Made by a program: the position numbers and the translations under genes. DNA of 64,000 bases from an uncultured Desulfatibacillum sp. (lineage in GTDB: Bacteria > Desulfobacterota > Desulfobacteria > Desulfobacterales > SpSt-501): contig CAYRUF010000005.1 of assembly GCA_964427375.1 (NCBI GenBank), forward strand, positions 69,286-133,285, given 5' to 3'. This document shows, in pieces, positions 5,557 through 64,000 of the stretch (position 1 is the stretch's first letter; every line of letters begins with the position of its first letter). A model generated the notes under the pieces. The model did not search any database, had not been told where the DNA came from, and saw only the letters and a program-made list of their open reading frames with translations.

Positions 5557-5585
5557 AACTTGTTCCTAAAACCCCACCGGCAGAA

Positions 5586-6467
5586 TCACAGGCCGGCGAT
5601 ATCTCGTTTCCACGGGCACAGCAGCTTTTCCAGGCCGCTCACCAGCATAGACGAGAGCCAAGCCACGATGGCGATGATGACCATGCCGCCGATCACCAGG
5701 GAGGTGTCCGATATTTTCATGCCCTGCACGATGATGAACCCCAGCCCGGAGCGGGAAGCCACCAGCTCCGCTGCCAAAACACAAGTCCAGGCCATGGAGA
5801 GCGAAATCTGCAGTCCAGCGAAAATGGCTGGAAAGGATGCCGGAAAGCTCACCTGGATGATTTCATTCCAGCGTCTCCCGCCCAGGACCTTGATGACGTC
5901 GTATAGCTCCGGCTCGATCAGGCGGACGCCGTTGTAGGAGTTGAGCAGGCAGGGCACAAAAGTGCCGATGACGATGATGAAGATCTTGGACGGTTCGCCG
6001 ATGCCAAACCAAAGGATCGAAATGGAAATCCAGGCGATCGGCGGCATGGGCTTGAAGATGTCGAACACCGGCTTGACGATGGCGTTCACATAGGGGTTGA
6101 GGGCCATGAACAGCCCCAAGGGGATCGCCAGCGCCGATGCCAGGATAAATCCGATGAAAATGCGCTGGGCGCTGGCCCAGATGTGCCCCCAGATCGTGAG
6201 GCCCGCCAGCGTGTCGGTCATCAACCCCTGGAAGCGTGCCACCACCTGCCAGGGGGTGGCGAGGGCGCCGGCGAAAAAACCGCTGACGGCAACATGGTGC
6301 CACAGGAGCAGGAAAGCGACGATGGACACGACATGGAGCAGGTATTCGTTGGTAATGATGCGCCGGAGGGTCAGCGGCTTTTTCTCCCGGACCGTTTGCT
6401 GGACTTCATCGGCAATGGAGCTGCCCTGCCGGCCGAGGCTCTGGATGTTTTCCTGAAGCTCTGCCAT
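5586..6467 (-). CDS. ABC transporter permease (NitT/TauT family)
   Basis: Multi-pass membrane ORF. I trimmed the start to ATG 6467 (MAELQENIQ...). The longer track ORF (to 6671) would overlap the upstream permease and its extension is Arg/Gly-rich junk. Confidence 0.85.
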   Translation of the reverse strand: MAELQENIQSLGRQGSSIADEVQQTVREKKPLTLRRIITNEYLLHVVSIVAFLLLWHHVAVSGFFAGALATPWQVVARFQGLMTDTLAGLTIWGHIWASAQRIFIGFILASALAIPLGLFMALNPYVNAIVKPVFDIFKPMPPIAWISISILWFGIGEPSKIFIIVIGTFVPCLLNSYNGVRLIEPELYDVIKVLGGRRWNEIIQVSFPASFPAIFAGLQISLSMAWTCVLAAELVASRSGLGFIIVQGMKISDTSLVIGGMVIIAIVAWLSSMLVSGLEKLLCPWKRDIAGL

Positions 6468-9385: not shown

Positions 9386-9672
9386 GGAGTGCTCCTCATT
9401 TATGCTGGCTCGGCACTGGCCGGCGATCCAGTGTCTGCTCTGCCGTTGATGATTGTCTCCCGAGATTTTGCAGGGTTTGACAATGCGTTTCTTGGATGCA
9501 TTGGAAAGGAGGTATCTTGACGTGAAGGATGCGGCGAACGCCTGGTGAAATCATAAAACCGCAGGGGCTGAGACTCAAACGCCGCCATGGATCGAACCGT
9601 CCTGCACAAGTGTCCGACATGCGTTTCCGTGAAGGTTTCGACGGCCGGTTGATTGGAGCGATAACCGGCGCT

Positions 9673-10392: not shown

Positions 10393-13137
10393 TTATGGAC
10401 CTGCCGAATCGGTGTCGGTGTCCGGCCGGAGGTTGACCGCGGAGACCTTGTATTCCGGGATCTTGGATATCGGGTCGACCGCCGGGCCGGTCAGGAGGTT
10501 GGCGGGAGCTTCGTGCCAGTGGAACGCCATGAAAGCCTGCCCGCGAGCCACCCGCCGGTCGCGGCGGGCGACGGTCCGAATGGCGCCGCGCCGCGAGGCG
10601 ACCCGGATCGGACGGCCGTCGGCCAGGCCGCAGCGTTCGGCATCTTCCGGGTTGACGTCGATCCGGCTGTGCGACACAAGCGTTTCCAGCACCGGCGCGC
10701 GGCGGCTCATGCTGCCGGTGTGCCAGTGCTCCAACACGCGGCCGGTGGTCAGCACGACGGGATAGTCCGCGCTCGGTTCTTCGGCCGGCGGACGGTATGC
10801 CACCACGTGGAACTTGCCCCGGCCGCGGGTAAAACGCTCCGCGTGCAGACGCGGGGTGCCGGGATGGCCTGCATCCCAGACGGGCCATTGCAGGCCGCCG
10901 CACTGCGCCAGTCGCCCGTGGCGGACGCCGGCATAGATCGGCGTGAGCGATGCGATTTCATCCATGATCGCCTCGCTCGAAACATAAGCCATGGAGTAGC
11001 CGCATCGGGTCGCAACGTCCGCCACGATGCGCCAGTCCTCCCGGGCCTCGCTTGGCGCCGGAAGCGCACGGCGCACCAGCTGAATGCGGCGTTCCGTACT
11101 GGTGAAGGTGCCCTCTTTTTCTGCAAAGCAGGCGGCGGGCAGCACGACATCGGCCCGGAGGGCCGTTTCCGTCAGGAAGATGTCCTGGACGACCAGAAAG
11201 CCGATCCGGCTGAAAGCCGTTCGCGCATGGCTCAAATCGGGTTCGCTCATCAGCGGGTTTTCGCCGACCACATACAGCGCGTGCAGCCGTCCCTCGCCGG
11301 CGGCCTGGGCCATCTCCGTCAGCGACAGCCCCGGTTCGGGATCGAGCTCAACCCCCCAGGCCCGCGAAAACCTGGAGCGGACCTCGGCGTCGATCACTTT
11401 CTGGTAGCCGGGGAACACGTTCGGAAGCGCCCCCATGTCGCAGGCCCCCTGCACATTGTTCTGGCCGCGCAGGGGCGAGAAGCCCGTCCCCGGCCGGCCC
11501 ATGTTGCCGGTGAGCATGAGCAGATTGGCGACGGCTTTGACGTTGTCGGTGCCGGTGGTGTGCTGGGTGATCCCCATTCCGTATACGACGACCAGGGTCT
11601 CGGTCGTGCCGAGAATGCGGGCGCTGCGGGCGATGTCAGCCGCCGGGACGCCGGTGACGGCTTCCACGGTATGCGGTTCATAGGCGCCGAGCGAGCGCCG
11701 GAAGAGATCGAAATCCTCGCAGCGTTCGGTGACGAAGTCGGCCTTGAACAGCCCCTCGCGGAGGATGACGTGCATCAGGCCGTTGAGCAGGGCCACGTCG
11801 GTGCCCGGCCGGTGGCACAGGTGCACGGCGGCCATCTCCGCAAGCTCGGTTTGGCGGGGGTCGGCGACGATCAGCCGCGCGCCGTTCAGCCGGACGTTCT
11901 GTTTGATCCTTCGGCCGATGATCGGGTGGCACTCGGTCGTGTTGGAGCCGATCACCAGCAGGGCGGCCGCGCGCCCGATGTCATCGATGCTGTTGCTCAT
12001 AGCCCCCTCGCCGAAGGCAGCCAGAGCGGCCGCCACCGTGGAGGAATGGCACAGCCGGGCGCAGTGGTCGACATTGTTCGTGCGCAGGACGGCCCGGGCG
12101 AATTTCTGCACGATATAGTTCTCCTCATTCGTGCACTTGGCCGAACTCAGCACCCCGACGGCCCGGGGACCTCCTTCCTCGCGCGCGCCTATAAGTCCAG
12201 CCGCCACACGATCCAGGGCTTCCTCCCAGCCGGCTTCGCGGAATAGCTCCGCAACCGCCCCCCGGGTGTGCGACTTGAGAACCCCCTCCCGGCGGATCAA
12301 GGGGCGGGTGAGGCGTTCCGGGTGATGCACGAAATCCAGGCCGAAGCGTCCCTTCACGCACAGGCCGCCCTGGTTCACCGGGCTGCTGCGGTCGCCCTTG
12401 ACCGATACGATGCGGTCCCCGCGGACCCCGAGCGCCATGGAGCAGCCCACTCCGCAGAACGGGCACACCGTCGTAACCTCGCGCTGAGGGACCGCCGCCT
12501 GCTTGGGCACCAGCGCCCCGGTGGGGCAGCGCTCCACGCACTCGCCGCAGGTCTGGCAAACCGACTGCGCCAGGGGCTTCGCACCGAAGGCGCTGACGCG
12601 CGCGCGAAAGCCCCGCGAGGCGAAGTCGATCGCCCCCAGCCCCTGGATTTCATGGCACACCCGCACGCACTTGCCGCACAGGATGCATTTGTTGGGGTCG
12701 AAGGAAAAAGCGGGGTTGGAGTCGTCGATGGGCCTGGCGGCCGCCGTCCGGCGCAGGCGTCCGACGTCGGAAGGCCCCACGCCGAGGTAGCGCGCCACCG
12801 CCAGCAGCTCGCAGTCCCGAGCTTTGAAGCAGGTCAGGCAATCGTTCGGGTGGTTGGCGACGGCCAGCGCGATAATGTTGCGGCGGATGCGGCGGATGGA
12901 CTCGCTTTCCGTGGCGACCACCATGCCGTCCGCGGCCGGGGTGGTGCACGCGGTGGGCAGCCCCCGCAGGCCGTCGATCTGCACGATGCACAGCCGGCAG
13001 GCGCCGAAAGGCTTCAAGAAGGGATCGTCGCAGAGGGTCGGAATGTAGATGCCGGCCGACCGGGCCGCCTGGAGGACGGTCGATCCCGCCGGCGCCTGGA
13101 CGATGCGGCGGTCAATGGTGAGGGAGATCGATTTCAC
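10393..13137 (-). CDS. fdhA: Formate dehydrogenase alpha subunit (molybdopterin, Cys-type) with NuoG-like N-terminal 2Fe-2S/4Fe-4S domains
   Basis: It has an N-terminal 2Fe-2S ferredoxin (CRLCIVQIDG), a HPNDCLTC motif and 2x4Fe-4S (CILCGKCVRVC, CQTCGECVERCP). The MopB 4Fe-4S is TVCPFCGVGCS, the active site is VDHCARLCHSST (Cys at the Sec/Cys position), and RGQNNVQGACDMG is present. I set the start at GTG 13137 (VKSISLTIDRR) with GGAGGA upstream. There is no Tat signal, so the enzyme is cytoplasmic. Confidence 0.9.
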   Translation of the reverse strand: MKSISLTIDRRIVQAPAGSTVLQAARSAGIYIPTLCDDPFLKPFGACRLCIVQIDGLRGLPTACTTPAADGMVVATESESIRRIRRNIIALAVANHPNDCLTCFKARDCELLAVARYLGVGPSDVGRLRRTAAARPIDDSNPAFSFDPNKCILCGKCVRVCHEIQGLGAIDFASRGFRARVSAFGAKPLAQSVCQTCGECVERCPTGALVPKQAAVPQREVTTVCPFCGVGCSMALGVRGDRIVSVKGDRSSPVNQGGLCVKGRFGLDFVHHPERLTRPLIRREGVLKSHTRGAVAELFREAGWEEALDRVAAGLIGAREEGGPRAVGVLSSAKCTNEENYIVQKFARAVLRTNNVDHCARLCHSSTVAAALAAFGEGAMSNSIDDIGRAAALLVIGSNTTECHPIIGRRIKQNVRLNGARLIVADPRQTELAEMAAVHLCHRPGTDVALLNGLMHVILREGLFKADFVTERCEDFDLFRRSLGAYEPHTVEAVTGVPAADIARSARILGTTETLVVVYGMGITQHTTGTDNVKAVANLLMLTGNMGRPGTGFSPLRGQNNVQGACDMGALPNVFPGYQKVIDAEVRSRFSRAWGVELDPEPGLSLTEMAQAAGEGRLHALYVVGENPLMSEPDLSHARTAFSRIGFLVVQDIFLTETALRADVVLPAACFAEKEGTFTSTERRIQLVRRALPAPSEAREDWRIVADVATRCGYSMAYVSSEAIMDEIASLTPIYAGVRHGRLAQCGGLQWPVWDAGHPGTPRLHAERFTRGRGKFHVVAYRPPAEEPSADYPVVLTTGRVLEHWHTGSMSRRAPVLETLVSHSRIDVNPEDAERCGLADGRPIRVASRRGAIRTVARRDRRVARGQAFMAFHWHEAPANLLTGPAVDPISKIPEYKVSAVNLRPDTDTDSAGP

Positions 13138-13163
13138 GACGGCTTCCTCCGCAGGCGGGATCG

Positions 13164-15014
13164 TCAACAGATGGCGATCGCCTGCTGCTTGCAGGACTGG
13201 TAGCACATGCCGCAGCGGGTGCACCGGCTCGTGTCGATGACGTGCGGCGCTTTTTTCTCCCCGGCCACGGCCCCCGTCGGACATTCGCGGGCGCAGCGGT
13301 GGCAGCCCGTACAGCGTTCGGGGTCGATTTCATAGTGAAAAAGATCCCGGCAGACCCCCGCCCGGCATTTGCGGCTATGGACATGACTCTCGTATTCCCC
13401 GCGGAAATAGCGCAGGGTGGAAAGGACCGGGTTGGGCGCGGTCTGCCCCAGCCCGCACAGCGATCCTTTCTGGACGGTCTCGCTCAGGTCGGCCAGCAGG
13501 TCGAGATCCGCCTCCCGGCCGCGGCCGCCGCAGATGTCCTCCAGGATGTCGAGCATCTGTCGGGTTCCCAGGCGGCAGGGCAGGCACTTGCCGCAGGATT
13601 CCGCCTGGGTGAAGCTCAGGAAGTAGCGCGCCACGTCCACCATGCAGGTGTCCTGGTCCATGACCACCATGCCGCCGGAGCCCATGATGGAGCCGGCCGC
13701 CACGAGGGATTCGTAGTCGGCCGGCAGGTCGAAACGGCCGGCCGGGATGCAGCCTCCGGAAGGCCCGCCCGTCTGGACCGCCTTGAGGGCCTTGCCCTCG
13801 GGCGCGCCGCCGCCGATGCCCTCGATGATGTCGCCCAGGCTCATTCCGAGAGGAACTTCGATCAGGCCGGTGCGGCGGATCTTGCCGGCCAACGAAAACG
13901 TCTTGGTGCCCTTGCTGGATTCGGTGCCGAAGCGGGAATACCATTCGGCTCCGCGCTGCAGGATGGCGGAGACGTTGCCGAGCGTCTCGACGTTGTTGAT
14001 GGTGGTGGGCTCGCCCCACAAGCCGGACTGGGCCGGAAACGGAGGCCGGGATCGGGGCATGCCGCGCTCGCCTTGAATCGAGGCCATCAAGGCGGTCTCC
14101 TCGCCGCAGACAAAGGCTCCGGCGCCTTGTTTGATCGCGACCTGGAACCGGAACCGGCTGCCCAATACGTTCCGGCCCAGGAGGCCGCAACGCTGCATAT
14201 CGGCGATGGCTTTTTCCAGACGGGCGATGGCCAGCGGGTATTCGGCGCGCGCGTAGATGTAGCCTTCGTCGGCGCCGATGGCATAGGCGGCGATGAGCAT
14301 GCCTTCCAGCACGGCGTGCGGATCGCCCTCCAGCAGCGCGCGGTCCATGAAGGCGCCGGGGTCGCCTTCGTCGGCGTTGCAGACGATGTACTTCGATCGG
14401 CCGGGGGCCCGGCGGGCGAAAGCCCATTTGGTCCCGGTGGGAAAGCCGGCCCCGCCGCGGCCGCGCAGCCCGGAGTCCGTGACTTCGCGGATCACCGCTT
14501 CGGGCGGCATGTCCAGGGCGCGCTTGAGGCCGGCGTAGCCGCCGCGGGCGATGTAGTGGTCGATGTGGGTCGGGTCGATATGCCCGCAGTTGCGCAGAGC
14601 GATGCGAACCTGGGAGCGCATCATCGGGTGCCGCTCCATGGGCGGGATGCCCTCGATCTCGCCTTGGCCGCAAGTGAACTCCGCCCAACGCCGGCAGGGA
14701 TCGTCCTGTTTCAGGTAGCGGGTGAGGATCGTCTCGGTTTTTTCCGGCGTCAGCCCACCGTAGAAGATCGCCGGCCTTCCCGGCTTGCGGACGCTCATGA
14801 GGGGCTCGGCATAGCACATGCCGATGCAGCCGACCTCCATGAAGCGGGCCAGGACACGAGCCGATTTCAACGTCTTTTTGGCGGCGGCCAGGACCTGTTC
14901 GGCACCCGAAGCGCGGCCGCAGGTCCCCATGCCGATGGCGATCAACGGCTGCGGAAGGTTTTCCAGCCACGCCCACTCCCGTTCCGCCTTGGCTTGCAGC
15001 GACTGGTAGTCCAT
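13164..15014 (-). CDS. NuoF/HydB(HndC)-type NAD(P)H-FMN flavoprotein with N-terminal thioredoxin-like 2Fe-2S and C-terminal 2x[4Fe-4S] domains
   Basis: 616 aa with GRGGAGFPTGTKW, CNADEGDPGAF, ESCGKCLPCRLG and a C-terminal CTGCHRCARECP...CTRCGMCYQSC. The N-terminus has GTCGRASG...GCIGMCYAEP. Confidence 0.9.
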   Translation of the reverse strand: MDYQSLQAKAEREWAWLENLPQPLIAIGMGTCGRASGAEQVLAAAKKTLKSARVLARFMEVGCIGMCYAEPLMSVRKPGRPAIFYGGLTPEKTETILTRYLKQDDPCRRWAEFTCGQGEIEGIPPMERHPMMRSQVRIALRNCGHIDPTHIDHYIARGGYAGLKRALDMPPEAVIREVTDSGLRGRGGAGFPTGTKWAFARRAPGRSKYIVCNADEGDPGAFMDRALLEGDPHAVLEGMLIAAYAIGADEGYIYARAEYPLAIARLEKAIADMQRCGLLGRNVLGSRFRFQVAIKQGAGAFVCGEETALMASIQGERGMPRSRPPFPAQSGLWGEPTTINNVETLGNVSAILQRGAEWYSRFGTESSKGTKTFSLAGKIRRTGLIEVPLGMSLGDIIEGIGGGAPEGKALKAVQTGGPSGGCIPAGRFDLPADYESLVAAGSIMGSGGMVVMDQDTCMVDVARYFLSFTQAESCGKCLPCRLGTRQMLDILEDICGGRGREADLDLLADLSETVQKGSLCGLGQTAPNPVLSTLRYFRGEYESHVHSRKCRAGVCRDLFHYEIDPERCTGCHRCARECPTGAVAGEKKAPHVIDTSRCTRCGMCYQSCKQQAIAIC

Positions 15015-53028: not shown

Positions 53029-54657
53029 ATGCAACCTACTCAAGCTCCCCCCGGCGGGCCCAAGCTGGCCCAGCGGCTGCAGCAGGCCGAGGCCGGTGTG
53101 TCGGCTGGAACCATCATGCAGGCCAATCTCGCGGATCTGGAGTCCATGAAAAACGATGCGTTCCAGGCCGGAGGGGTGCGGCGCATCGAGGACCAGCACC
53201 GCCGCGGCAAGCTCACCGCTCGGGAGCGGATCGAACTGCTGCTGGACGAAGGGTCCTTCGAGGAGTTCGACATCCTCAAGACCGGTCGCGGGGACTACAC
53301 CGACCAGGAGCGCCGCTACCCCGGAGACGGCGTCATCACCGGCCACGGCACGATCGACGGCCGCGAGGTCTTCGTCTTCAGCCAGGACTTCACCGTCATC
53401 GGAGGCTCCCTCGGCGAGGCCCACTCCCAGAAGATCAGCAAGGTCATGGATCATGCCGTCCGCGTGGGCTCGCCCATCGTGGGCCTCAACGACTCGGGCG
53501 GCGCGCGCATCCAGGAAGGGGTCGATGCGCTGGCGGCCTACGGCGAGATCTTCAACCGCAACGTCCAGGCGAGCGGCGTGGTGCCCCAGATCTCCTGCAT
53601 CATGGGGCCGTGCGCCGGCGGCGCGGTCTACAGCCCGGCCATCACGGACTTCGTCTTCATGGTGGAGCCCACCGCTTACATGTTCGTGACCGGCCCCAAC
53701 GTGGTCAAGACCGTCACGCATCAAGAAATCACGGCGGCCGATCTCGGCGGCGCACGCATTCACGGGGAGAAGAGCGGGGTGGCGCATTTCGTTCTGCCCA
53801 ACGACATCCTGTGCCTGCGGGAGGTGCGGCGCCTGATCAACTACCTGCCCTCCAACAACCAGCAGCGGCCGCCGATCCTGGACCTGCGCGACCCGCTGGA
53901 GCGCACCGATCCGGCGCTGGACTTCTTGATCCCGGCCAATCCCAACCACACCTACGATATGAAGGTGCTCATCCACAGCATCATGGACGGTGCGGAGTTC
54001 ATGGAGATCCAGCCGCATTTCGCCCGCAACATCATCTGCGGCCTGGGCCGATTGGGGGGGCAGACCGTGGGCCTCATTGCGAACCAGCCGGCCGTGCTCG
54101 CCGGCGTGCTCGACATCAACGCCTCGGCCAAGTCCGCGCGCTTCGTGCGATTCTGCGACGCCTTCAACATTCCCCTGGTCTGCTTCGTGGACGTCCCCGG
54201 ATTCATGCCCGGGCCCGAACAGGAGTCCGGCGGCATCATCCGCCACGGCGCCAAGCTGCTGTATGCTTTCGTCGAGGCCACCGTGCCGCGCATCACCGTC
54301 ATCCTGCGCAAGGCTTACGGCGGGGCTTACATCGTCATGAATTCCAAGCACATCGGCGGGGACATCAACTATGCCTGGCCCACGGCGGAGATCGCCGTGC
54401 TGGGCCCCAAGGGGGCGGCCGAGGTGATCTATCGGCAGGAGATCGCCGCCGCCGCCGACCCGGACGCCCTTCTTGCCGAGAAGACCGATCACTACCGGAA
54501 AACGTTCGCCAATCCGTTTCTGGCAGCCAAGCGGGGCTATATCGACGATGTGATCTTCCCGCGCCACACCCGCCAGCGCCTGATTCGCAGCCTGCAGTTT
54601 CTGGAAAGCAAGCGGGCGGGACGGCCGAATCGCAAGCATGGCAACATTCCGTTGTAA
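53029..54657 (+). CDS. Acyl-CoA carboxylase carboxyltransferase (beta) subunit, propionyl-CoA carboxylase beta-like
   Basis: 542 aa with typical PccB/MmdA motifs ([45 protein letters not shown]). The start could instead be the internal M at 53116. Confidence 0.9.
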
Positions 54658-54666
54658 GGAGGACCC

Positions 54667-56676
54667 GTGTTCGACAAGATCCTGATCGCCAACCGGGGTG
54701 AGATCGCCATCCGCATCGCGCGGACCTGCAAGCGCATGGGGATTCGCACGGTGGCGGTGTACTCCGAGATCGACGCCCGGTCGCAGCATGTGCAGGCGGC
54801 GGACGAAGCCGTTTGCATCGGGCCTCCGCGGTCGGATCAGTCCTATCTATCCAAGGAAAAAATCATAGAGGCGGCGCTTGCGCGCCAATGTGCGGCGATC
54901 CACCCCGGCTACGGCTTTCTTTCTGAGAATCCGGCCTTCGCGGAAATGGTGAACAGTGCTGGACTTGCCTTCATCGGACCGCCGCCCGTCGCCATTGCCG
55001 CCCTGGGAGACAAGGTGGCGTCGAAAGCCCTTGCAGTGAAAGCCGGGGTGCCGGTGGTGCCGGGACTTCTCAAATCGGTCGACGACCTGGACGCAGCCCT
55101 GGCCGGCGCCGATGGAATCGGTTACCCGCTCCTGCTGAAGCCGGCTGCGGGCGGCGGCGGCAAGGGCATGCGCATCGTCGCCTCACGGAACGAGCTGGCC
55201 GCGGCCATGCAGGCCGGTCGCGCCGAGACCCGCAAGGCCTTCGGGGACGACCGGGTCTTCGTGGAGAAGTATATCCCGGTCGCGCGCCATGTGGAGATCC
55301 AGATCATGGCCGACCGCCACGGTGCGGTCATCCACCTGGGCGAGCGCGAGTGCTCGGTCCAGCGGCGCTATCAAAAGGTCGTCGAGGAATCCCCTTCGGT
55401 CGCCGTCGACGCGGACCTGCGGGGGCGAATGGGGGCCTGCGCCTGCCGGATCGCACGGGAGGCCGGCTACGTCAACGCCGGCACGGTGGAGTTCATCCTG
55501 GATCCGGCCGGCAGCTTCTTCTTTCTGGAGATGAACACGCGCCTGCAGGTGGAGCATCCCGTGACCGAAATGGTGACCGGGCTGGACCTCGTGGAGCTGC
55601 AGTTGCGCGTGGCGGCCGGCGAGCCCCTGCCGCTGCGTCAAGAGGACGTCGCCTGGAAGGGCTGGGCCGTGGAAGCGCGAGTCTGCGCCGAGGACCCCGG
55701 CCGCGGGTTTCTCCCGTCGACGGGGATGATCACGCGCTATTCGCCCGCCTGCGGCGCGAATGTCCGCCTGGACAGCGGCGTCGAAGCCGGCAGCCTGATC
55801 AGCGTCTTCTACGATTCGCTGCTCGCCAAGGTCATCGCCTGGGGCGCAACCCGCCGGGACGCGATCGACTCGCTGGTGCGCGCGCTGAACGGCTACCACA
55901 TCGAGGGGCCGGCCACGAACGTGGATTTCGTCAACTCGGTCCTGACCCACCCTGAATTCATCGCGGGGAATCTGTCCACGGCGTTCATCGAAACACATTT
56001 CGACAAAGGCCTGCCCAAGGCCGCTCCTCCTGTGGAGCGGCTCCATTTCATGGCCATGGCAGCCACGATCGTCTACCACAACCGCCAGAACCTCACGCGC
56101 GAGTCCCTGAAACCCATGGCGGCCCAGGTGGGGGTCGCGCACGCTTCCCTGGACTGCCACCCTTATATGGTGCGCTGCCGCCAGGACGTCTTCGAGGTCT
56201 GCCTGCGCAAAGATCCGCCGGCCCACGAGTGGACCGTCACCGTCGACGGCGTGACCTACGCGGTGACCACTCCCGAGTTCGAGTTCTACCGGCGCCGGCT
56301 CAAGCTCAAGATCAACGGTCGATCGCACATGTTCCGTCTGTACTACCAGTACAGCTTTTTCGGGGTCGCCTTCTGCGGCACGGCGCGGATCTTCGAGGTG
56401 TTCTCCCCACGGGAATGGGAGCTCTCGCGGCACATGCCCGCTCCCCGCGACGATGTGCTCGAAAACGTCCTGCTCTGCCCCATGCCGGGGCTCGTGGTGG
56501 GGGTGCGCGTAAAGAAGGGCGACCGCGTCTACCGCGGCCAGGACCTGGTCAGCATCGAATCCATGAAAATGGAGAGCTTCGTCGCCTCGCCCTGCGACGG
56601 CGAAGTGGAGGAGGTGCTGGCGGTACCCGGGCAGGCGGTGGAAGCGGATGAAGTCCTGGTGCGGTTTAAGATTTAA
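54667..56676 (+). CDS. Acyl-CoA carboxylase alpha subunit (biotin carboxylase + biotin carboxyl carrier domain)
   Basis: GTG start. Motifs include FDKILIANRGEIAIRI, an ATP-grasp (GGGGKGMR) and a C-terminal biotinyl-Lys context (SIESMKMES). Confidence 0.92.
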   Translation: MFDKILIANRGEIAIRIARTCKRMGIRTVAVYSEIDARSQHVQAADEAVCIGPPRSDQSYLSKEKIIEAALARQCAAIHPGYGFLSENPAFAEMVNSAGLAFIGPPPVAIAALGDKVASKALAVKAGVPVVPGLLKSVDDLDAALAGADGIGYPLLLKPAAGGGGKGMRIVASRNELAAAMQAGRAETRKAFGDDRVFVEKYIPVARHVEIQIMADRHGAVIHLGERECSVQRRYQKVVEESPSVAVDADLRGRMGACACRIAREAGYVNAGTVEFILDPAGSFFFLEMNTRLQVEHPVTEMVTGLDLVELQLRVAAGEPLPLRQEDVAWKGWAVEARVCAEDPGRGFLPSTGMITRYSPACGANVRLDSGVEAGSLISVFYDSLLAKVIAWGATRRDAIDSLVRALNGYHIEGPATNVDFVNSVLTHPEFIAGNLSTAFIETHFDKGLPKAAPPVERLHFMAMAATIVYHNRQNLTRESLKPMAAQVGVAHASLDCHPYMVRCRQDVFEVCLRKDPPAHEWTVTVDGVTYAVTTPEFEFYRRRLKLKINGRSHMFRLYYQYSFFGVAFCGTARIFEVFSPREWELSRHMPAPRDDVLENVLLCPMPGLVVGVRVKKGDRVYRGQDLVSIESMKMESFVASPCDGEVEEVLAVPGQAVEADEVLVRFKI

Positions 56677-57067: not shown

Positions 57068-57493
57068 TCACATCTGATGAGCCGCCAGGAACATGGATTG
57101 CGACAGCGCGACGAAGAAGCGCTGATAGAGTTCGGAATCCTCGATCGCCTGGAGGTTGTACTGGGCGTTGGCCCTGACCAGCACCTGCGTCTCCCCCCGC
57201 GGACGCACGCTAACGGTCATCTTCAGCACGTATCCCGAAAGCCGGGTGGCGCTTACGATCCCCAGCGACGAACTGGCCTTGTCAATCACGAATCCCAGAT
57301 CCTGCAGGGTTGCGATCACCGCACGCATGGCCCGGTTTTCATCGGGAGTGTCGAAAACGCGCGACTGGATCGAGCGCAGCCGGACCTCCGATTCGCCAGC
57401 CTCCAGCACCGGCCGGGTGGTCGGGGCGCAGGCGCAGACCGTCAGCAGCAAGGCGGCAATGCCCCCGGGAACGATGAAACGACTGGTTTTCAT
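57068..57493 (-). CDS. Lipoprotein of unknown function (paralogue of the upstream gene)
   Basis: 141 aa with a signal peptide and Cys lipobox region (ALLLTVCACA). It shares the motifs QSR.FDT...., LQDLGF.I and FF..LS.S.FL.AH with 57490-58044. Confidence 0.75.
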   Translation of the reverse strand: MKTSRFIVPGGIAALLLTVCACAPTTRPVLEAGESEVRLRSIQSRVFDTPDENRAMRAVIATLQDLGFVIDKASSSLGIVSATRLSGYVLKMTVSVRPRGETQVLVRANAQYNLQAIEDSELYQRFFVALSQSMFLAAHQM

Positions 57494-58044
57494 AGTTCGT
57501 GTGCCTCCAGAAAGAGGGATCGCGAGAGCTTTTCGAAAAAATCACGGTACATCTGAGGTTCAACCAGGCCTTCCTGACGGCTGACCAGCCCCCGCTGGTT
57601 GCGGACGATCCGCTGGAACGACACTCTCACGACCGTTCGACATTTGGCCGGATCGGCGGCGTCCACCGCGACCGGCTGGGTCACGACCGATGCACGGATC
57701 CATTGATCCCTGTCCACGGGAGGGACGACGCCGGTGAGCATGGCCAGGGCGAAAGCCCCGATCATCTGCTCCGTGCGGCTGGCATCACGGTGCTTGGAGC
57801 AGGCGATCAGCCCGTAGGCCGGCTCGCTGTCCTCGATCATGAACCCCAGGTCCTGCAGCAGCGCGGTGCTGGCGGCCAGGAGGGTCTGCTCGTCGGTGTC
57901 GAACTGACGGCTCTGCAGCGGGCGCTGGACCAGGTCCTCGGGCGCAAGCTCCAAGGCCGCTCTGGGAACCAAAGGGACGCAGCTGTTGAGCAGCAACAAG
58001 AGCCCCAGCATGAATGCCATGAATTTGATAACGACGTGCCGCAT
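57490..58044 (-). CDS. Lipoprotein of unknown function (paralogue pair member)
   Basis: 184 aa with lipobox LLLLNSC and a 4-nt overlap with the downstream paralogue. Confidence 0.75.
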   Translation of the reverse strand: MRHVVIKFMAFMLGLLLLLNSCVPLVPRAALELAPEDLVQRPLQSRQFDTDEQTLLAASTALLQDLGFMIEDSEPAYGLIACSKHRDASRTEQMIGAFALAMLTGVVPPVDRDQWIRASVVTQPVAVDAADPAKCRTVVRVSFQRIVRNQRGLVSRQEGLVEPQMYRDFFEKLSRSLFLEAHEL

Positions 58045-58058
58045 GGACGCCTCCGCAC

Positions 58059-58517
58059 TCAGAAACTGGATTGCCGGTAGGCAAAATCCCGCACCCGATG
58101 GTCCTCGTTGAACTTGACGATCACGGTCAGCGTGCGCTGGCTGGTGGACGAGGCGCCCTCGCTCCTGAAGAAATTGGGTAGAATTCCTCCGCCGCCGGCG
58201 ACGGTCCCCGTGAACCCCGCCAGGATGAGCGCCGCGACCCCACCCGAGCTGGCGGAGTAGGCATGCTCGGTTGCGATGCGGTCATACACCCAAACTTCCC
58301 GTCGGTTTTCGTCCGTGGCGATAACGTTGGGCGACCCCAGGGCCTCCGCCACCTCGGCATTCGTCATCCCCGTGCGGATCTCGCGCTGAACTTTGCCGGC
58401 CGTCAACCGGTCGGCATCCTCCGCCTGGACCGACTTGCGATGATCGGACGCCGTTGAGCACCCCACGAAAGTTGCGGTGAATGCCAGGCATATCGCCCAC
58501 ACCAGGATCCTTTTCAT
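58059..58517 (-). CDS. Lipoprotein with SmpA/OmlA (BamE-like) motif and Gly-rich segment
   Basis: 152 aa with lipobox TFVGCS. GMTNAEVAEALGSPN resembles the BamE/SmpA_OmlA core, and a glycine-zipper-like stretch (GGVAALILAGFTGTVAGGGG) follows. Confidence 0.7.
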   Translation of the reverse strand: MKRILVWAICLAFTATFVGCSTASDHRKSVQAEDADRLTAGKVQREIRTGMTNAEVAEALGSPNVIATDENRREVWVYDRIATEHAYSASSGGVAALILAGFTGTVAGGGGILPNFFRSEGASSTSQRTLTVIVKFNEDHRVRDFAYRQSSF

Positions 58518-58610
58518 GATTCACCTCCCAATCTTTGCCCAACACCCAGGTCCATGGAAACCAGCCGCATCGGCCCGCGAACGCGCCAAGGCGCTATACT
58601 GCGAAACGCC

Positions 58611-59060
58611 TCACTCGCTCTGCTCGCCGCCCTTGAAGTATTCGACGGTTTGCACCCGGTCGCTGCTGTTGTAGGTGACCAGCACCATCGTGTCCGTGCC
58701 GCTGAATATCATTTCCGTGGGAGTTCCGACCGCCTCCCAGAGGCCAAAGGTCAGTATGTCGGCGGTTCCGTGCAGCACGGCTCTCGAGATTCTGGCCGGC
58801 TGGGAATAGCCCTGCTTGAACTTGTACACCTCGGAACGGACGCCGTCCCGGTTTTCATAGCCGGACGGCAGGCCCATCTCGGCCAGGACCACCTGCCGCG
58901 GCACTCCCGGCTTGAAGACCTCGAGGTTTTTCTTATCCCGAAGCTGCGCGGCCATGAACACCGAGCAGCCCGATAGGCTGAACAACAAGCAGGCCGCCAG
59001 GAGAAGTCCGGGGATGGCGCTGCCGGATTCGGTTTCCTGTCGTTTCGGGGTGGTTTTCAT
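58611..59060 (-). CDS. Lipoprotein of unknown function
   Basis: Start at ATG 59060 (MKTTPKRQE...), preceded by GGGAGGA. The lipobox is FSLSGCS. Confidence 0.7.
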   Translation of the reverse strand: MKTTPKRQETESGSAIPGLLLAACLLFSLSGCSVFMAAQLRDKKNLEVFKPGVPRQVVLAEMGLPSGYENRDGVRSEVYKFKQGYSQPARISRAVLHGTADILTFGLWEAVGTPTEMIFSGTDTMVLVTYNSSDRVQTVEYFKGGEQSE

Positions 59061-59114
59061 GGTGATTTCCTCCCTTCCTCCGAGCGTTGGGCGAGGGCTT
59101 TCAAAGGACGTCAT

Positions 59115-59909
59115 TTAGCGATACCGCAAACCGCCCAGCATAATAATCGTCGTAATAATCGCAGTATCGGCAGCGGCCGCCGGGACCACCAACAGGGTAT
59201 AGGGATTCACCCATTCGCTGCCGGGCTCGAAGGCGCCGGCAATCCCGATCGGCTGGAGGTGTTCCGAATTCTTGTCAGGCGGCAAGTAGACCATCAGGAC
59301 ATCTTCTGCCCCGAAGGATTCAGACGGACGTTCTTCAGGTTCAAAGCGGACTTCGATGAGCCGGCCTTGATCTGCTGTGCCAGCATTCTGGGAATGAAGG
59401 ATTTCCGGTAACCGCGGCTGATCCTCGGGGCGGATCTGGAGTGTTTCGATCTTCAGCGCCGAAACCGGAAAATGACTCTCACCGGCAGGGTTGCCGCAGT
59501 CCTTTTGCGCCTCCAGAAGCGGGTAGAGATACCAGATCAGCCCCGACGGGGACATAGAACCATGGTCCGATCCGATCCGGCCGTAACCGGCCGGCATGAT
59601 GTCGGAGAAGGTCCTCCCGATCTGGGAGGCCTGCGAAAGGTTGATCGTGTAAGCATGCGGGGCGTCAGCGGGGGAATCGCGAAGCTCGACGCAGGCAAAT
59701 ACGTCACTTCCGGCGACGAAATAACCGGAGCGGACGGCGGCCAGGGACCAGAAGTTGGTGGCTTCCTTGACCCGTACTTCGCGCGCCTGTCGCAGTTCAA
59801 GGACTTTGCTGGTGATGCATCCGGACAGGCTCAGGAAGCTGACAAGAGGAACCGCAATCATGAGGATGCGCTGGATGGCTTTTCTCAGCAAACGGCTTTC
59901 AGGCTTCAT
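59115..59909 (-). CDS. Lipoprotein of unknown function with C-terminal hydrophobic helix
   Basis: 264 aa with lipobox LSLSGC, a C-terminal LLVVPAAAADTAIITTIIMLGGL and a strong RBS (GAGGAGGTG). Confidence 0.7.
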   Translation of the reverse strand: MKPESRLLRKAIQRILMIAVPLVSFLSLSGCITSKVLELRQAREVRVKEATNFWSLAAVRSGYFVAGSDVFACVELRDSPADAPHAYTINLSQASQIGRTFSDIMPAGYGRIGSDHGSMSPSGLIWYLYPLLEAQKDCGNPAGESHFPVSALKIETLQIRPEDQPRLPEILHSQNAGTADQGRLIEVRFEPEERPSESFGAEDVLMVYLPPDKNSEHLQPIGIAGAFEPGSEWVNPYTLLVVPAAAADTAIITTIIMLGGLRYR

Positions 59910-59938
59910 GATCCACCTCCTCTTTTGAATGACGGTAG

Positions 59939-59954
59939 AGCAAGGGCCGTACCA
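59939..59954 (-). promoter_or_regulatory. Sigma-54 (-24/-12) promoter of the five-lipoprotein operon
   Basis: The minus strand reads TGGTACGGCCCTTGCT against the consensus TGGCACG-N4-TTGCW, with one mismatch and correct spacing. It lies 30 nt upstream of ATG 59909. Confidence 0.6.
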
Positions 59955-60027: not shown

Positions 60028-60262
60028 AAATCGTTTTGAATTTACCAAGGATGCAAATCCGGACGTGCGGAGCGATTCAAGCCTGACAAACGCTCTCGAC
60101 CCAGGGCTTGGGAGAGCATGCCTGCAACTGCGGTTGACGGCTCAAAGGGGATCTGGAGCAATTGCTTGTCGATTCATTCGGTTGGCTGCGGGAAAGGTGG
60201 TTGACCCGTCAACCCCGGCGGCGGCCCAGGGCTGCTGCCGAACGGCGCGGCGACGAGCGTTT

Positions 60263-61651
60263 TCATGCATTTCGGCCGTGGTTCTGCAGGTGCTGCCGGG
60301 CCTGGTACATGAAAGTGCGGATGGCGGTTTCGCGGTTGGGCTGGATGCTGTCGTCGTAGGGGGTGTCCAGGAAGGGAAAGCCCAGCTCATGCATGATCGG
60401 CCGCACGACGGCCGATGTGGTCGTGCCGGGCATGCAGGTGAAGGGGTAGACATTCACCGCGCCGTTAAATCCGTTGCGGGCGCAGTGCAGGATGCCGGGA
60501 ATGCTCAAGCTGGCCTCGGTGGGGATGTCGAAGGAAAAATCGCCCGATCCTTTCAGTACCTTCTCCAGGTGTGAAATCCGATGATCCTCGGCGATGTAAA
60601 GCCGCCTCCGGGCGCGTTTGAAGACCGCCTGCTGGGTTCTCTCCTGGAACCGAAGATGGATGCCAAAATCCAGCATCTCCCGGATCGATTCCTTTACAAG
60701 GCGGGGCCGAAGCAATCGCAGACCGAGCCCCAGCTTTTTTTTGGCCTGCCGCAGCCCGTCGTAACTCACGTAGTTCAGCCACTCCGTCATGGAGGCGTTG
60801 ACCACCTCCGCCCCGTAGCGTTCCAGCATTCGAATCAGGTCCTGATTGGAGCGACGGTGCATGCGCAGGAAGATTTCCCCCACCATGCCGATGAGCGGCT
60901 TCGGCGGGGCAGCCGGATCGATGATGGCCAGGCCGGCCGCCAGAACCTTTTCGAGCTCCCCGACGACCGGGTCAAACGGGTTCCCGGCGCCGGTCCGCTC
61001 GACAACCTCCATCAACCGGTGCAGGCCCTGCTCCGCCAGGGCATCGGTCAGGCCGGCCGCCTTCTCGTAGGGCCGGACTCTCCAGGTCATCCGGTCCAGG
61101 ACATCGGATACGACCATGGCTAGACAGGCCGTCTTCTTGAAGCGCTGAATCTTCTGGGGGTCGATCAGGCCCTCCGGCGAGTAGTTGTCCGTGTTGGTGA
61201 GGGAACTGATTTTCAAGGCCTGCAAGTCCGGCAGCGAATCCAGCACCAATCGCTGGTATTTGTTGTACATCCCGAACCGGCAGGGACCCTCCGACTCCGG
61301 CATGAAGAAGACATAACGGTCCGCCCGGAAGGCCGCTCCCAGGCGGCGCCTTTCTTCTTCGACAAAATGCAAAAGGTCTCCCAGCGTGACCAGGCAGGGG
61401 AAGCATTCCTTGCCGGAAGTGAATTTCTTGCCGAGTTCTAGGCCGCGGCCGGTCTCCAGCACCTGGGCATCGACGGCAAAGGCCCTTAGAACAGCCGCGA
61501 AGAGATGAGCGCTGCTGCGGTTCATCTCGGGGATCAGGACCTGGCTCTTTCCCAGTTGGAGTTTACCGATGGTTTTGGTTGAAGCCGGTATTTGAACTAC
61601 ATTCGCGCTTTCCATGGCAATCTCTCTTCTAATCTCGCTCTTGAAAGTCAT
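60263..61651 (-). CDS. Acyl-CoA dehydratase activase-related protein (DUF2229/YjiM-like, HgdB-like fold)
   Basis: About 460 aa with GKECFPC, EGPCRFGMY, IGMVGEIF and FTCMPG, motifs typical of the proteins that accompany BcrAD/HgdC-type activases. The start is uncertain (ATG 61651 or 61615). Confidence 0.75.
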   Translation of the reverse strand: MTFKSEIRREIAMESANVVQIPASTKTIGKLQLGKSQVLIPEMNRSSAHLFAAVLRAFAVDAQVLETGRGLELGKKFTSGKECFPCLVTLGDLLHFVEEERRRLGAAFRADRYVFFMPESEGPCRFGMYNKYQRLVLDSLPDLQALKISSLTNTDNYSPEGLIDPQKIQRFKKTACLAMVVSDVLDRMTWRVRPYEKAAGLTDALAEQGLHRLMEVVERTGAGNPFDPVVGELEKVLAAGLAIIDPAAPPKPLIGMVGEIFLRMHRRSNQDLIRMLERYGAEVVNASMTEWLNYVSYDGLRQAKKKLGLGLRLLRPRLVKESIREMLDFGIHLRFQERTQQAVFKRARRRLYIAEDHRISHLEKVLKGSGDFSFDIPTEASLSIPGILHCARNGFNGAVNVYPFTCMPGTTTSAVVRPIMHELGFPFLDTPYDDSIQPNRETAIRTFMYQARQHLQNHGRNA

Positions 61652-61694
61652 GTCGTTTCGCCTTTGGCCGAGGTTCGTGGCTTGGCCCTTACGC

Positions 61695-64000
61695 TCAATG
61701 GCACTGTCCCGCCGCAACGCGCGGCAGGCATTCTACCGGCGGCTTCGCCAACGTGTTGTGAATCACGTTCTGGTAGGCTTCCAGCCGGGTCATGACCCCG
61801 GCCGCAGCGCTGTGCTCGTCCAATTCGAGCATGAGACAGGCCTTGGCCCCCATCGTGTGCTTGTAAAAATGCTCGATGAAGGAGTCCGCACCGCAGCCGA
61901 AATTCGTCAGGTGCAGCCCGAAATAATTCGGGGTGGTGCCGATCAGCCGGGCGGTCCGCAGAATCTGGGCACCCAGGCCCCAGTACATCGATGCGAAATC
62001 GCCGAGGGGAATGGCAGATGCATCGATAAAATCCATAGGGAGTGCCGCCAGTCCGATCTTGGCCAGGCTCTGCCCCAGCCGCAGGTTCAGGCGTTCGTCG
62101 TAAAGGTTGTAGGGCCGGCCGGTCACTACGACGAGCGGCTCGTCGGCTCCGATGCTCTTGAGGATACGGTCGCCGGCGCGGTGCAGCTCTTTCACAAAAA
62201 GATCCTGACGCTCAAGGGCGTGCTTCAGCGCCTGGCGGACCCGGCTCTTGCCGACTCCGAGCCGGCGCCCGATTTGCGCGTGAAGATCCAGCGCCAGCAT
62301 GTCCGCATCAGCCCGGAGGTTCAGGACGGGGCTCAGGACCGCTTCCGATGGTATCCCCAGGGCTGCACGGATCATGTAGGTGTTGCTCTGGACCATGGGG
62401 CAGTAATACCCCCGTTCGCGCGGGTGGGGGGTCGCCATATCCAGCGGGACGGGCAGGAACAGATGGCGCGTCCGGCCCATCAGCAGCCGGGCATGGCCGT
62501 GCGACACTTTTACGGGGTAGCAGGTCTCCGCCGTCATGGTCTCGATGCCGCTCCTGGACATCGACTCGTTGGTGGGCGGCGACAGCACCAGCCGGAATCC
62601 CAGCTGGTCGAAAAAGTGCGCCCACATCAGGCAGCCGTGGATTCCATAGAGCGCCCGCATCATGCCCACGGTAGGCCGGCCGTCCACCTCGAGGAGGGGA
62701 GCAGCGTCCGGCAGAGTTGAATACACGCCCGCCATGTGGTCTTCCCAGATTTTGGCCCGCAGACGGAAATAGTTCTCCTTGCGGCCGGCGCCGGTGGCGA
62801 GATCGTAGCGGCCGCATTCTCCGCCCCACACGCTTTTTCGGCCGTCGAAACGGTAGACTTTCAGTTTGCACTGGTTCTGGCAGGCGGGGTCGGCCTGGCA
62901 GGTCTTCTCCAGAAAGAGCATCCGATCGGCGACGGCGCGCTCGATCCCGCGGAAGGTGCTGGATCCGAGACACCCCTCCGCCAGCATCTTTTCCTGAACG
63001 CACAGGGCGGCACCGAAGGCGCCGAGGACCTCGCGGTGCCGGGGGACCAGCAGCCCGCAGCCGAGCACGTTCTCGAAAGCCGCCACAACGCCCTTGTTGA
63101 GGGACGGTCCGCCCAGGAACATCACGCGCTCGCCGATCCGGCGCTTGCCGACCACCCGGTTCAGGTAGTTGTGGACGACGGCATAGCAAAGCCCCGCGAT
63201 GAGATCCCGGCGCGCCGCGCCTTTTTGATGAAAGGACATGAGATCGGATTCCATGAACACCGTGCAGCGCTCGGCCAGCTTCACCGGCGTTTCCGAGGCC
63301 AACGCGATTTCCTGGAACTCGCCCACGATGTCGATGCCGAGTTTGTTGGCCAGCTCGTGCAGGAAACTGCCCGTGCCCGCGGCGCAGACCTTGTTCATGT
63401 CGAAGTCGAGGGGGTGGGTACCGCGGATGGCGATGTATTTGGAGTCCTGGCCGCCGATTTCGAAGATGGTGTCCACCGTTGGATCGAGGGCGACCGCTCC
63501 CCGCGCATGCGCCGTGATCTCGTCGATGATGAGATCCGCCTTCAGAAAATCCCCGACCACGTTCCGACCCGACCCCGTCGTCGCCGCCCCCAGGATCGTC
63601 AGGCCCGGTCCCATCTGGGACCGGATGTGTTCAAGGAGCCCCTGGACCGTTTCGACCGGCTTGCCGCACGTCGGCACATAGCATTTGTGGACGATCCGGC
63701 CGGCCTCGTCGATCAGGGCGTATTTGGTGGTCGTGGATCCGATGTCGATGCCCAGATAGCCGCGCAGACCGGCGGCCGTTACCCGGCTCGGGTTGTCGTT
63801 GCCTTCCGGGAAGACGGTTTTGCGCAGCGCAAGCCCTAAACCGACCGGCACCGCCGCCGCCCGGCGGTCCGGCGGAACGGCGAGGGTCGTCGGATCGATT
63901 TTAACCGCCCGGCCGGCGGCAAGGCCGTGAAGCGCCGCGCCCAGGGCGCCCAGCGACGTGCTGTGCGGCGGCACCACCAGGCCCGGAAAATAGGCCCGCA
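61695..64000 (-). CDS. BadF/BadG/BcrA/BcrD-type ATPase (CoA-substrate-specific enzyme activase) fused to a DUF2229-like domain; 5' end outside the window
   Basis: Motifs include LGIDIGSTTTKYALI, FEIGGQDSKYI, CAAGTGSFL and GGPSLNKG. The frame stays open to position 64000, and the first residues (..GALGAALHG) look like the end of another ATPase domain, so the gene continues upstream. Confidence 0.85.
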   Translation of the reverse strand, partial: RAYFPGLVVPPHSTSLGALGAALHGLAAGRAVKIDPTTLAVPPDRRAAAVPVGLGLALRKTVFPEGNDNPSRVTAAGLRGYLGIDIGSTTTKYALIDEAGRIVHKCYVPTCGKPVETVQGLLEHIRSQMGPGLTILGAATTGSGRNVVGDFLKADLIIDEITAHARGAVALDPTVDTIFEIGGQDSKYIAIRGTHPLDFDMNKVCAAGTGSFLHELANKLGIDIVGEFQEIALASETPVKLAERCTVFMESDLMSFHQKGAARRDLIAGLCYAVVHNYLNRVVGKRRIGERVMFLGGPSLNKGVVAAFENVLGCGLLVPRHREVLGAFGAALCVQEKMLAEGCLGSSTFRGIERAVADRMLFLEKTCQADPACQNQCKLKVYRFDGRKSVWGGECGRYDLATGAGRKENYFRLRAKIWEDHMAGVYSTLPDAAPLLEVDGRPTVGMMRALYGIHGCLMWAHFFDQLGFRLVLSPPTNESMSRSGIETMTAETCYPVKVSHGHARLLMGRTRHLFLPVPLDMATPHPRERGYYCPMVQSNTYMIRAALGIPSEAVLSPVLNLRADADMLALDLHAQIGRRLGVGKSRVRQALKHALERQDLFVKELHRAGDRILKSIGADEPLVVVTGRPYNLYDERLNLRLGQSLAKIGLAALPMDFIDASAIPLGDFASMYWGLGAQILRTARLIGTTPNYFGLHLTNFGCGADSFIEHFYKHTMGAKACLMLELDEHSAAAGVMTRLEAYQNVIHNTLAKPPVECLPRVAAGQCH

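Follow-up and report, generated by a model that had tools for sequence, protein, structure and literature searches.

The window analysed here is a stretch of 64,000 nucleotides (nt) from a contig of an uncultured Desulfatibacillum sp. (CAYRUF010000005.1, positions 69,286 to 133,285), and it carries, at 57068-59909 on the minus strand, a row of five small lipoprotein genes, named g1 to g5 in the order in which they are read, which the original prediction had described as a single self-contained module. The row is instead a juxtaposition of two units, a lineage-specific pair (g1-g2) and an independent cassette (g3-g4-g5) inserted downstream of it, since the pair occurs without the trio and the trio without the pair. 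As to function, we consider it an even bet that the products of the trio form a hetero-oligomeric outer-membrane lipoprotein complex serving envelope integrity, with g1-g2 as a separate sigma-54 unit.

Gene order was examined by tblastn of all five proteins against 90 fetched loci (L-numbered hereafter). The order g3-g4-g5 was kept in every locus with enough flanking sequence (80 genome loci), and g4 lay immediately upstream of g5 in every locus, whereas g1 and g2 were seen among the 90 only in the nearest relatives L010-L012, L012 being the same contig as L010. The complete five-gene row recurs in L010, L011 and L093; the pair stands without the trio in L094 and L095, which have an equivalent neighbourhood and share its sigma-54 promoter, and the trio stands without the pair in L007, L009 and about 75 genome loci. 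The pairing itself is constant, g2 adjoining g1 in L010, L011, L093, L094 and L095, and the families differ about 40-fold in size, with 100 relatives of g1 against 4329 of g5. Loss of the gene order had been named beforehand as grounds for abandoning the module, and it was found for the five-gene row, the pair being limited to close relatives, while the order of the trio held.

The five co-directional genes themselves were exactly placed, as judged from the list of open reading frames (ORFs) and the sequence, and the remaining details given for them checked out as well. The g1 product (59115-59909; 264 amino acids, aa) has a lipobox LSGC with Cys31 and, as had been predicted, a second hydrophobic segment at its C-terminus (about residues 237-260); g2 (58611-59060; 149 aa) has LSGC with Cys32, g3 (58059-58517; 152 aa) FVGC with Cys20, g4 (57490-58044; 184 aa) LNSC with Cys22, and g5 (57068-57493; 141 aa) VCAC with Cys22, all on the minus strand. 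Each of the five proteins reads as a positively charged N-terminus and a hydrophobic core followed by a lipobox (consensus [LVI][ASTVI][GAS]C), as expected of lipoproteins. The genes are separated by 54 nt (g1-g2), 93 nt (g2-g3) and 14 nt (g3-g4), and g4 and g5 overlap by the 4 nt ATGA. The ORF of g2 is open from 59114, and its translation likely starts at the ATG at 59060, right after the strong ribosome-binding site GGAGGAAGGGAGG; an identical 149-aa call is present in another assembly (L004). Thousands of conserved homologues mark g3, g4 and g5 as genuine genes, not ORFs that arose by chance.

Relatives of the trio, represented by the g5 family, were found in at least 546 species genomes of the 185,579 species scanned, with carriers in Desulfobacterota, Gamma- and Alphaproteobacteria, Planctomycetota, Nitrospirae, Chlorobium, Spirochaetaceae, Bdellovibrionales and Balneolales. 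Clustering of the five genes on each side of the trio in about 80 loci gave no conserved neighbours; sensor kinases came up most often (6 loci), then sigma-54 regulators (4 loci), and the earlier remark that no enzyme or transporter goes with these genes proved sound for g3-g4-g5, to which none was consistently linked. On a megaplasmid of Azospirillum brasilense the trio adjoins an IS5 element, and the 8-kb Rep-type Acinetobacter plasmid p4E072658 (L092) carries the whole trio (4892-6277) together with a SulP transporter and a RelE/ParE toxin-antitoxin pair. The g3-like protein of this Acinetobacter plasmid cluster was seen on 94 contigs, and the plasmid cassette is thus common in the genus. 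Among 73 aligned relatives, mature g5 was 69% identical within taxonomic (phylum or class) labels and 66% between them, the cross-phylum extremes being 95% for a Planctomycetota-Desulfobacterota pair and 98% for a Bdellovibrionales-Alphaproteobacteria pair. As identity between labels approaches that within them, and cross-phylum pairs reach such values, the pattern in the family suggests horizontal transfer along with strong purifying selection.

A complete trio was also met on the 1.8-kb contig L062, binned as a Methanosarcinales archaeon; it is 90% identical to a Planctomycetota (Brocadia) copy and is most likely a binning error, not an archaeal lipoprotein cassette. A phage gene set was considered and rejected, with no match in the GenBank phage collection and matches in 5 of 2.9 million IMG/VR contigs. 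All three proteins of the trio bear the RefSeq label "hypothetical protein".

The paralogy of g4 and g5, already claimed from their shared motifs, is firm: BLASTP aligned them with E 3e-15, the two families matched each other in hhalign with 99.5% probability (E 2e-23), the motifs are those described, and g4, the longer paralogue, amounts to g5 plus extra mid-chain segments. The g5 family comprises 4329 homologues (90% clustering), which fall into 1607 clusters at 50% identity. What the original prediction had missed is the helix-grip fold of the two proteins, of the BamC-domain type. The AlphaFold2 model of g5 (predicted local distance difference test, pLDDT, 78 for the whole chain and above 90 in most of the core) has the topology beta-alpha-beta4-alpha, and the mature protein of about 115 residues consists of five strands and two helices. 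Its best Foldseek matches in the PDB were to the N-terminal domain of BamC (6lys_C, E 3e-5, also 2laf and 2yh6; E 3e-5 to 3e-4), with target-normalised template modelling scores of 0.56-0.62, which agrees with a helix-grip fold; lower-ranking matches were KA1 domains, START/Bet v 1 proteins and Flpp3, a lipoprotein of Francisella. The profile built from 67 diverse relatives of g5 aligned with residues 116-201 of E. coli BamC (hhalign: probability 18%, E 1.3e-3, 24% identity), which is the same N-terminal helix-grip domain that Foldseek had matched. The BamC Pfam model (PF06804) gave no match to g4 or g5 at E<=1 and none to the 67 relatives at E<=0.1, and nothing significant was found for g4 and g5 in the PDB by sequence or family profile. 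Each chain holds one domain, with about 15 residues between the lipid-bearing Cys and strand 1, and the layout of BamC, tandem domains with a long disordered BamD-binding N-terminus, was not found, a tandem being seen only in rare natural fusions (P0241). Seven Arg or Lys residues of g5 are invariant or nearly so (R40, R45, R57, K72, R97, R99 and R107).

UniRef names an Azospirillum relative of g5 DUF4410; a Pfam scan of the 67 relatives, that protein included, did not reproduce the name, which lay outside the 25 most-matched of 29 families at E<=0.1, and a literature search found no paper mentioning DUF4410. Domains resembling g5 also occupy the N-terminal part of longer lipoproteins (P0249, P0252, P0242, P0244 and P0283), where low-complexity linkers lead on to other domains such as Lcl_C and DUF2141, and the helix-grip unit appears, from these sequences, to be reused as a membrane-proximal module.

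The third gene had been described as BamE-like with a glycine zipper, and both traits were recovered. Its product carries GMTNAEVAEALGSPN and a small-xxx-small run (G92, A96, A100, G104 and G108), and scores 24.4 bits against Pfam BamE (PF04355; gathering cut-off 23.2). Against the NCBIfam equivalogs it reaches 21 bits for BamE (NF008585; cut-off 93) and 14 bits for OsmE (NF008423; cut-off 65); having passed the Pfam and failed the NCBIfam cut-offs, it reads as a BamE-domain protein and not as a BamE or OsmE equivalog. The family counts 1691 homologues, many bearing the Joint Genome Institute (JGI) name BamE, and in its alignment (A2) the mean column identity is 78%, the Gly-rich stretch is conserved family-wide and the C-terminus VRDFAYRQS.F is invariant. 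Confidence in the AlphaFold2 model is low (pLDDT 52), and residues 81-127, the Gly-rich stretch, are disordered in it; the chain runs through two helices, two strands, the insertion and two more strands, the last being an extra C-terminal strand. The top fold matches in the PDB (best E 0.015) were BamE, OsmE and BLIP, with the type VI secretion system (T6SS) immunity protein BtiO also among the matches, and PDB sequence matches agreed with the BamE assignment.

Thus g3 shares with the BamE/OsmE family (PF04355, formerly SmpA_OmlA) the lipid anchor, the core of two helices and three strands, the Pfam score and the fold matches. It is unlike them in the Gly-rich insertion of about 45 residues between strands 2 and 3, which splits the sheet where BamE is a compact alpha-alpha-beta-beta-beta unit of about 90-110 residues with no large insertion, in scores far below the equivalog cut-offs, in being always encoded with two helix-grip lipoproteins, in its mobility and in its very high conservation across phyla. 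The small, stress-associated glycine-zipper lipoproteins (SlyB/Pcp, OsmB, 17-kDa antigen) have repeated small-xxx-small motifs as well, but in g3 the zipper is a loop inside a BamE fold and not the main body, and the Pfam glycine-zipper families (Rick_17kDa_Anti and others) gave no match at E<=1, the pattern being visible by direct reading only. In PHROGs the signal-peptide/BamE region of g3 matched one unnamed family, and nothing else was found. As a separate observation, the last eleven residues of g3 (58059-58094, minus strand) end in Phe, with a spacing unlike the canonical beta-signal of outer-membrane proteins.

Several traits suggest that the three proteins act together as a complex. 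Lipobox motifs are present in relatives of g3, g4 and g5 across phyla, the lipobox Cys being conserved in all 73 aligned g5 relatives, and the mature chains are conserved over nearly their whole length. The g4-g5 overlap reads ATGA in 40 of 58 loci, as if the two were translationally coupled, and a natural fusion (P0241, plus the fragment P0292) joins a g4-like domain, bearing the only lipobox, to a g5-like domain without signal peptide. The +2 residues after the lipid-bearing Cys are A, Q or M, with Asp not among the commonest +2 residues of any of the families; under the Lol +2 sorting rule of E. coli such residues direct lipoproteins to the outer membrane, and we infer by analogy that the trio is sorted there.

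On the favoured reading, a horizontally moving cassette would have landed, in this lineage, downstream of g1-g2, a pair whose transcription would start at a sigma-54 promoter preceded by two conserved elements. Once lipidated, the products of g3, g4 and g5 would be sorted to the outer membrane, on its periplasmic face, where the translationally coupled g4 and g5 could pair as a heterodimer corresponding to BamC's tandem helix-grip domains, joined by g3, whose glycine-zipper loop may engage the membrane or drive oligomerisation. Since no partner gene comes with the cassette, which is present across many phyla, every diderm should possess its target, and the complex may act on the machinery for beta-barrel assembly (BAM, through BamA or BamD), on anionic membrane lipids or on peptidoglycan, with the outer membrane stabilised or remodelled under stress as a result.

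A number of points weigh against this reading. The sequencing runs that hold the region are DNA metagenomes only (freshwater or wetland), with no transcript run among them. The distribution is patchy, with at least 546 carrier genomes in 185,579 species, and the trio is also carried by gammaproteobacteria, which are reported to own BamC and BamE; both points argue against a core role in BAM. Folds of the helix-grip kind are common, for g5 the KA1 and START domains come close to BamC in score, and the link between g5 and BamC is marginal at the level of sequence (hhalign probability 18%). The poor model of g3 (pLDDT 52) makes its fold matches weak, of supporting value only. The +2 rule was worked out in E. 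coli and may fail in these phyla, and mis-binning of metagenome-assembled genomes (MAGs) may inflate some of the cross-phylum identities.

The resemblances to BamC and BamE could also be taken at face value, the trio being true BAM subunits, a split BamC (g4 and g5) and a BamE (g3) docking on BamD/BamA in lineages thought to lack both. The best structural matches lead from g5 to BamC and from g3 to BamE, g3 exceeds the Pfam BamE threshold, and the natural g4-g5 fusion recreates the two-domain layout of BamC. BamC was indeed not found in alpha-, delta- and epsilon-proteobacteria and few OsmE-like "BamE" matches were found in delta-proteobacteria, and the authors suggested that other lipoproteins of BAM may have arisen in these lineages (Anwari et al., 2012; PMC3359395), a picture into which such subunits would fit. 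Like BamC (NlpB, PF06804), g5, and g4 by paralogy, has the helix-grip topology, with two domains paired and sometimes fused. In contrast to BamC, g4 and g5 each consist of a single domain with its own lipid anchor, lack the long disordered N-terminal BamD-binding region and have no Pfam BamC match, and the cassette occurs where BamC was not found, such as alpha- and delta-proteobacteria (PMC3359395). For g3, the 21 bits against an NCBIfam BamE cut-off of 93 and the 45-residue insertion tell against a true subunit, and the cassette is distributed patchily, is carried on plasmids, extends to gammaproteobacteria, which are reported to have a BamC and a BamE of their own (PMC3359395), and never adjoins bamA or bamD in the roughly 80 loci whose neighbours were clustered. 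On balance we regard membership of BAM as unlikely. A variant of it, to which we attach only a small probability, would make of the trio a free-standing, transferable counterpart of BamC and BamE, in which a split BamC and a glycine-zipper BamE dock on the BamD/BamA of the host and retune outer-membrane protein assembly under stress; it would then be either the source of the two-domain architecture of BamC or a parallel invention, in phyla believed to lack both proteins.

The further Foldseek matches of g5 suggest another possibility, a module binding lipids or other hydrophobic ligands (START/Bet v 1-like or KA1-like) and with a role in the homeostasis or transport of outer-membrane lipids, g3 serving as membrane adaptor. 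START/Bet v 1 proteins, Flpp3 and KA1 domains are all returned for g5, several of its Arg and Lys residues are invariant or nearly so, and anionic phospholipids are ligands of KA1 domains, as is phosphatidylglycerol of E. coli BamE. The small mature g5 is, nevertheless, closer to BamC and KA1 than to the cavity-forming START proteins, and no transporter or partner of the MCE/Mla type is linked to the trio, and a lipid-binding module in this sense seems distinctly improbable.

More doubtful still is an immunity or inhibitor set neutralising envelope-targeting toxins or enzymes, that is, an orphan defence island spread horizontally. BamE-like and BLIP-like folds serve as toxin immunity proteins and inhibitors, the fold matches of g3 include BtiO and BLIP, and the cassette is mobile, has no fixed neighbours and lies on a small plasmid beside a toxin-antitoxin pair. 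Rapidly evolving BamE-like immunity proteins have been described (Burroughs et al., 2025; PMC12419801), and those acting against lipid-targeting polymorphic toxins share with g3 a membrane-anchored, periplasmic BamE fold and mobile contexts. These proteins are, however, toxin-linked and fast-changing (PMC12419801), whereas the trio is 66% identical between phyla and strict in its three-gene synteny, with no linked or recurring toxin gene among the neighbours clustered in about 80 loci, and the PADLOC defence models gave no match to any of the five proteins at E<=1.

The weakest proposal, one dedicated five-component envelope module, may appeal to the co-directional genes, the short gaps, the 93-nt gap between g2 and g3 with no terminator found in it, the five-gene row of L010, L011 and L093 and a BamE-like motif that g2 may share with g3, but it is largely refuted by synteny, with the pair found without the trio, the trio without the pair in nearly all loci and family sizes of 100 against 4329, and we give it hardly any credence.

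Returning to the trio as a putative outer-membrane complex, its folds are known ones, those of BAM-type lipoproteins, and what is new is their arrangement in an autonomous, mobile, three-gene cassette. The earlier judgement that the genes belong to no described system is borne out, as searches of Pfam, NCBIfam, PADLOC, PHROGs and PDB sequences placed none of g1, g2, g4 and g5, and no description of the cassette was found in the literature on BamC- and BamE-like lipoproteins, helix-grip lipoprotein operons or glycine zippers combined with BamE. Outside beta- and gamma-proteobacteria little is understood of the accessory outer-membrane lipoproteins, and the parts of the trio resemble BamC and BamE, the two least understood lipoproteins of BAM. 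The three genes are strictly co-inherited in at least several hundred species and on small plasmids, and two of the three families have no Pfam or NCBIfam model. Cultivable carriers (Azospirillum brasilense, with the genes D3869_RS26645-26655 on plasmid p4, Inquilinus limosus DSM 16000 and bearers of the Acinetobacter plasmids) make the function directly testable; should the trio interact with BAM or with lipids of the outer membrane, it would amount to a portable module of envelope fitness and have a bearing on the origin of BamC.

The pair g1-g2 has its own regulatory region. A sigma-54-type promoter, TGGTAC-N5-CTTGCTCTA, with the -24 GG and -12 GC elements, lies at 59936-59954 on the minus strand; the segment 59939-59954, about 30 nt upstream of g1 and on the correct strand, is the sole match with one mismatch to TGGCAC-N5-TTGCW in the 64-kb window. 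We aligned seven g1-upstream regions from six loci, including those of trio-less loci and of a second copy of g1 (g1'), and TGGTAC-N5-CTTGC was invariant in all seven, the GG and GC elements, their spacing, their conservation and a nearby activator gene all being as expected of a sigma-54 promoter. Farther upstream on the same strand, the palindrome GGTTGACGGGTCAACC (60199-60214), a perfect inverted repeat GGTTGAC/GTCAACC some 245 nt upstream of the -24 element, is nearly invariant across the seven regions, and the partial palindrome GTCAACCGCAGTTGCA (60123-60138; CAAC-N4-GTTG) has an invariant core in all seven. The promoter and both upstream elements are common to loci with and without the trio, and GGTTGACGGGTCAACC and GTCAACCGCAGTTGCA are candidate activator binding sites.

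L010 encodes, directly upstream, a histidine kinase of the 7TMR-DISM/PAS type together with a sigma-54-dependent response regulator; in the contig of the window itself (L001) both likewise lie upstream, with activase-like genes in between. To judge from its sequence, the layout upstream of g1 is thus that standard for an enhancer-dependent sigma-54 operon, and the neighbouring two-component system is the likely activator of the g1-g2 promoter. In the 93-nt gap between g2 and g3 neither a terminator nor an unusually stable structure was found, so that, in the lineage of the window, transcription from the sigma-54 promoter probably continues into the cassette, which would be co-transcribed with g1-g2. 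Elsewhere, a sigma-54-like promoter stood directly upstream of g3 in 5 of 68 loci, against a background of 2.7%, and all five were delta-proteobacterial or Desulfobacterales MAGs; a universal sigma-54 promoter before g3 was therefore rejected in favour of a lineage-specific one. A quick regular expression for a sigma-E-type promoter before the trio matched 1 of 56 loci.

The block upstream of g1 in the window (60263-63977, minus strand, continuing past the window end; L001 2713-7231) encodes an acyl-CoA-dehydratase-activase-like protein of about 1028 aa (BcrAD_BadFG plus DUF2229), beside which lies a gene for a 450-462-aa protein without Pfam or NCBIfam match, preceded by the 7TMR-DISM/PAS kinase and the sigma-54 regulator. 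This block accompanies g1-g2 in L093-L095; in L094 and L095 the activase-like gene and the gene for the 450-aa protein lie upstream of g1-g2, and L095 additionally has a histidine kinase and a sigma-54 regulator.

The families of the pair are small and isolated. A database homologue search returned 100 relatives of g1 in total, each at least 47% identical, in whose alignment C31 and C138 are invariant, C73 is nearly so and a C-terminal segment NPYTLL..PA.A.D is conserved. Neither single sequences nor family profiles of g1 and g2 gave a significant match in Pfam, NCBIfam or the PDB. The hhalign comparison of the g2 and g3 families gave a probability of 10% (E 3e-3), confined to the region G-x-x-x-x-V-x-x-x-x-G-x-P, and BLASTP found no similarity between the two proteins; the N-terminal half of g2 may be BamE-like, and g2 as a clear paralogue of g3 was set aside, the resemblance being a hint only.

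In L010 a second, diverged pair (g1'-g2'; 56% and 46% identity) was found at 11770-14210, about 3.4 kb downstream of the trio, with a sigma-54 promoter of its own and split by an inserted transposase (DDE_3/HTH_33 genes). The same locus holds at 9392-9508, just after a BrnT/BrnA toxin-antitoxin pair, an isolated fragment with 79% identity to residues 103-141 of g5, which has the look of a pseudogene left over from a rearrangement or from another copy of the cassette.

On the other side of the row, convergent with g5, the window encodes at 53029-56676 on the plus strand the carboxyltransferase of an acyl-CoA carboxylase (542 aa) and a fusion of biotin carboxylase with biotin carboxyl carrier protein (669 aa); these genes are unrelated to the g3-g4-g5 cassette and keep their synteny in close relatives only.

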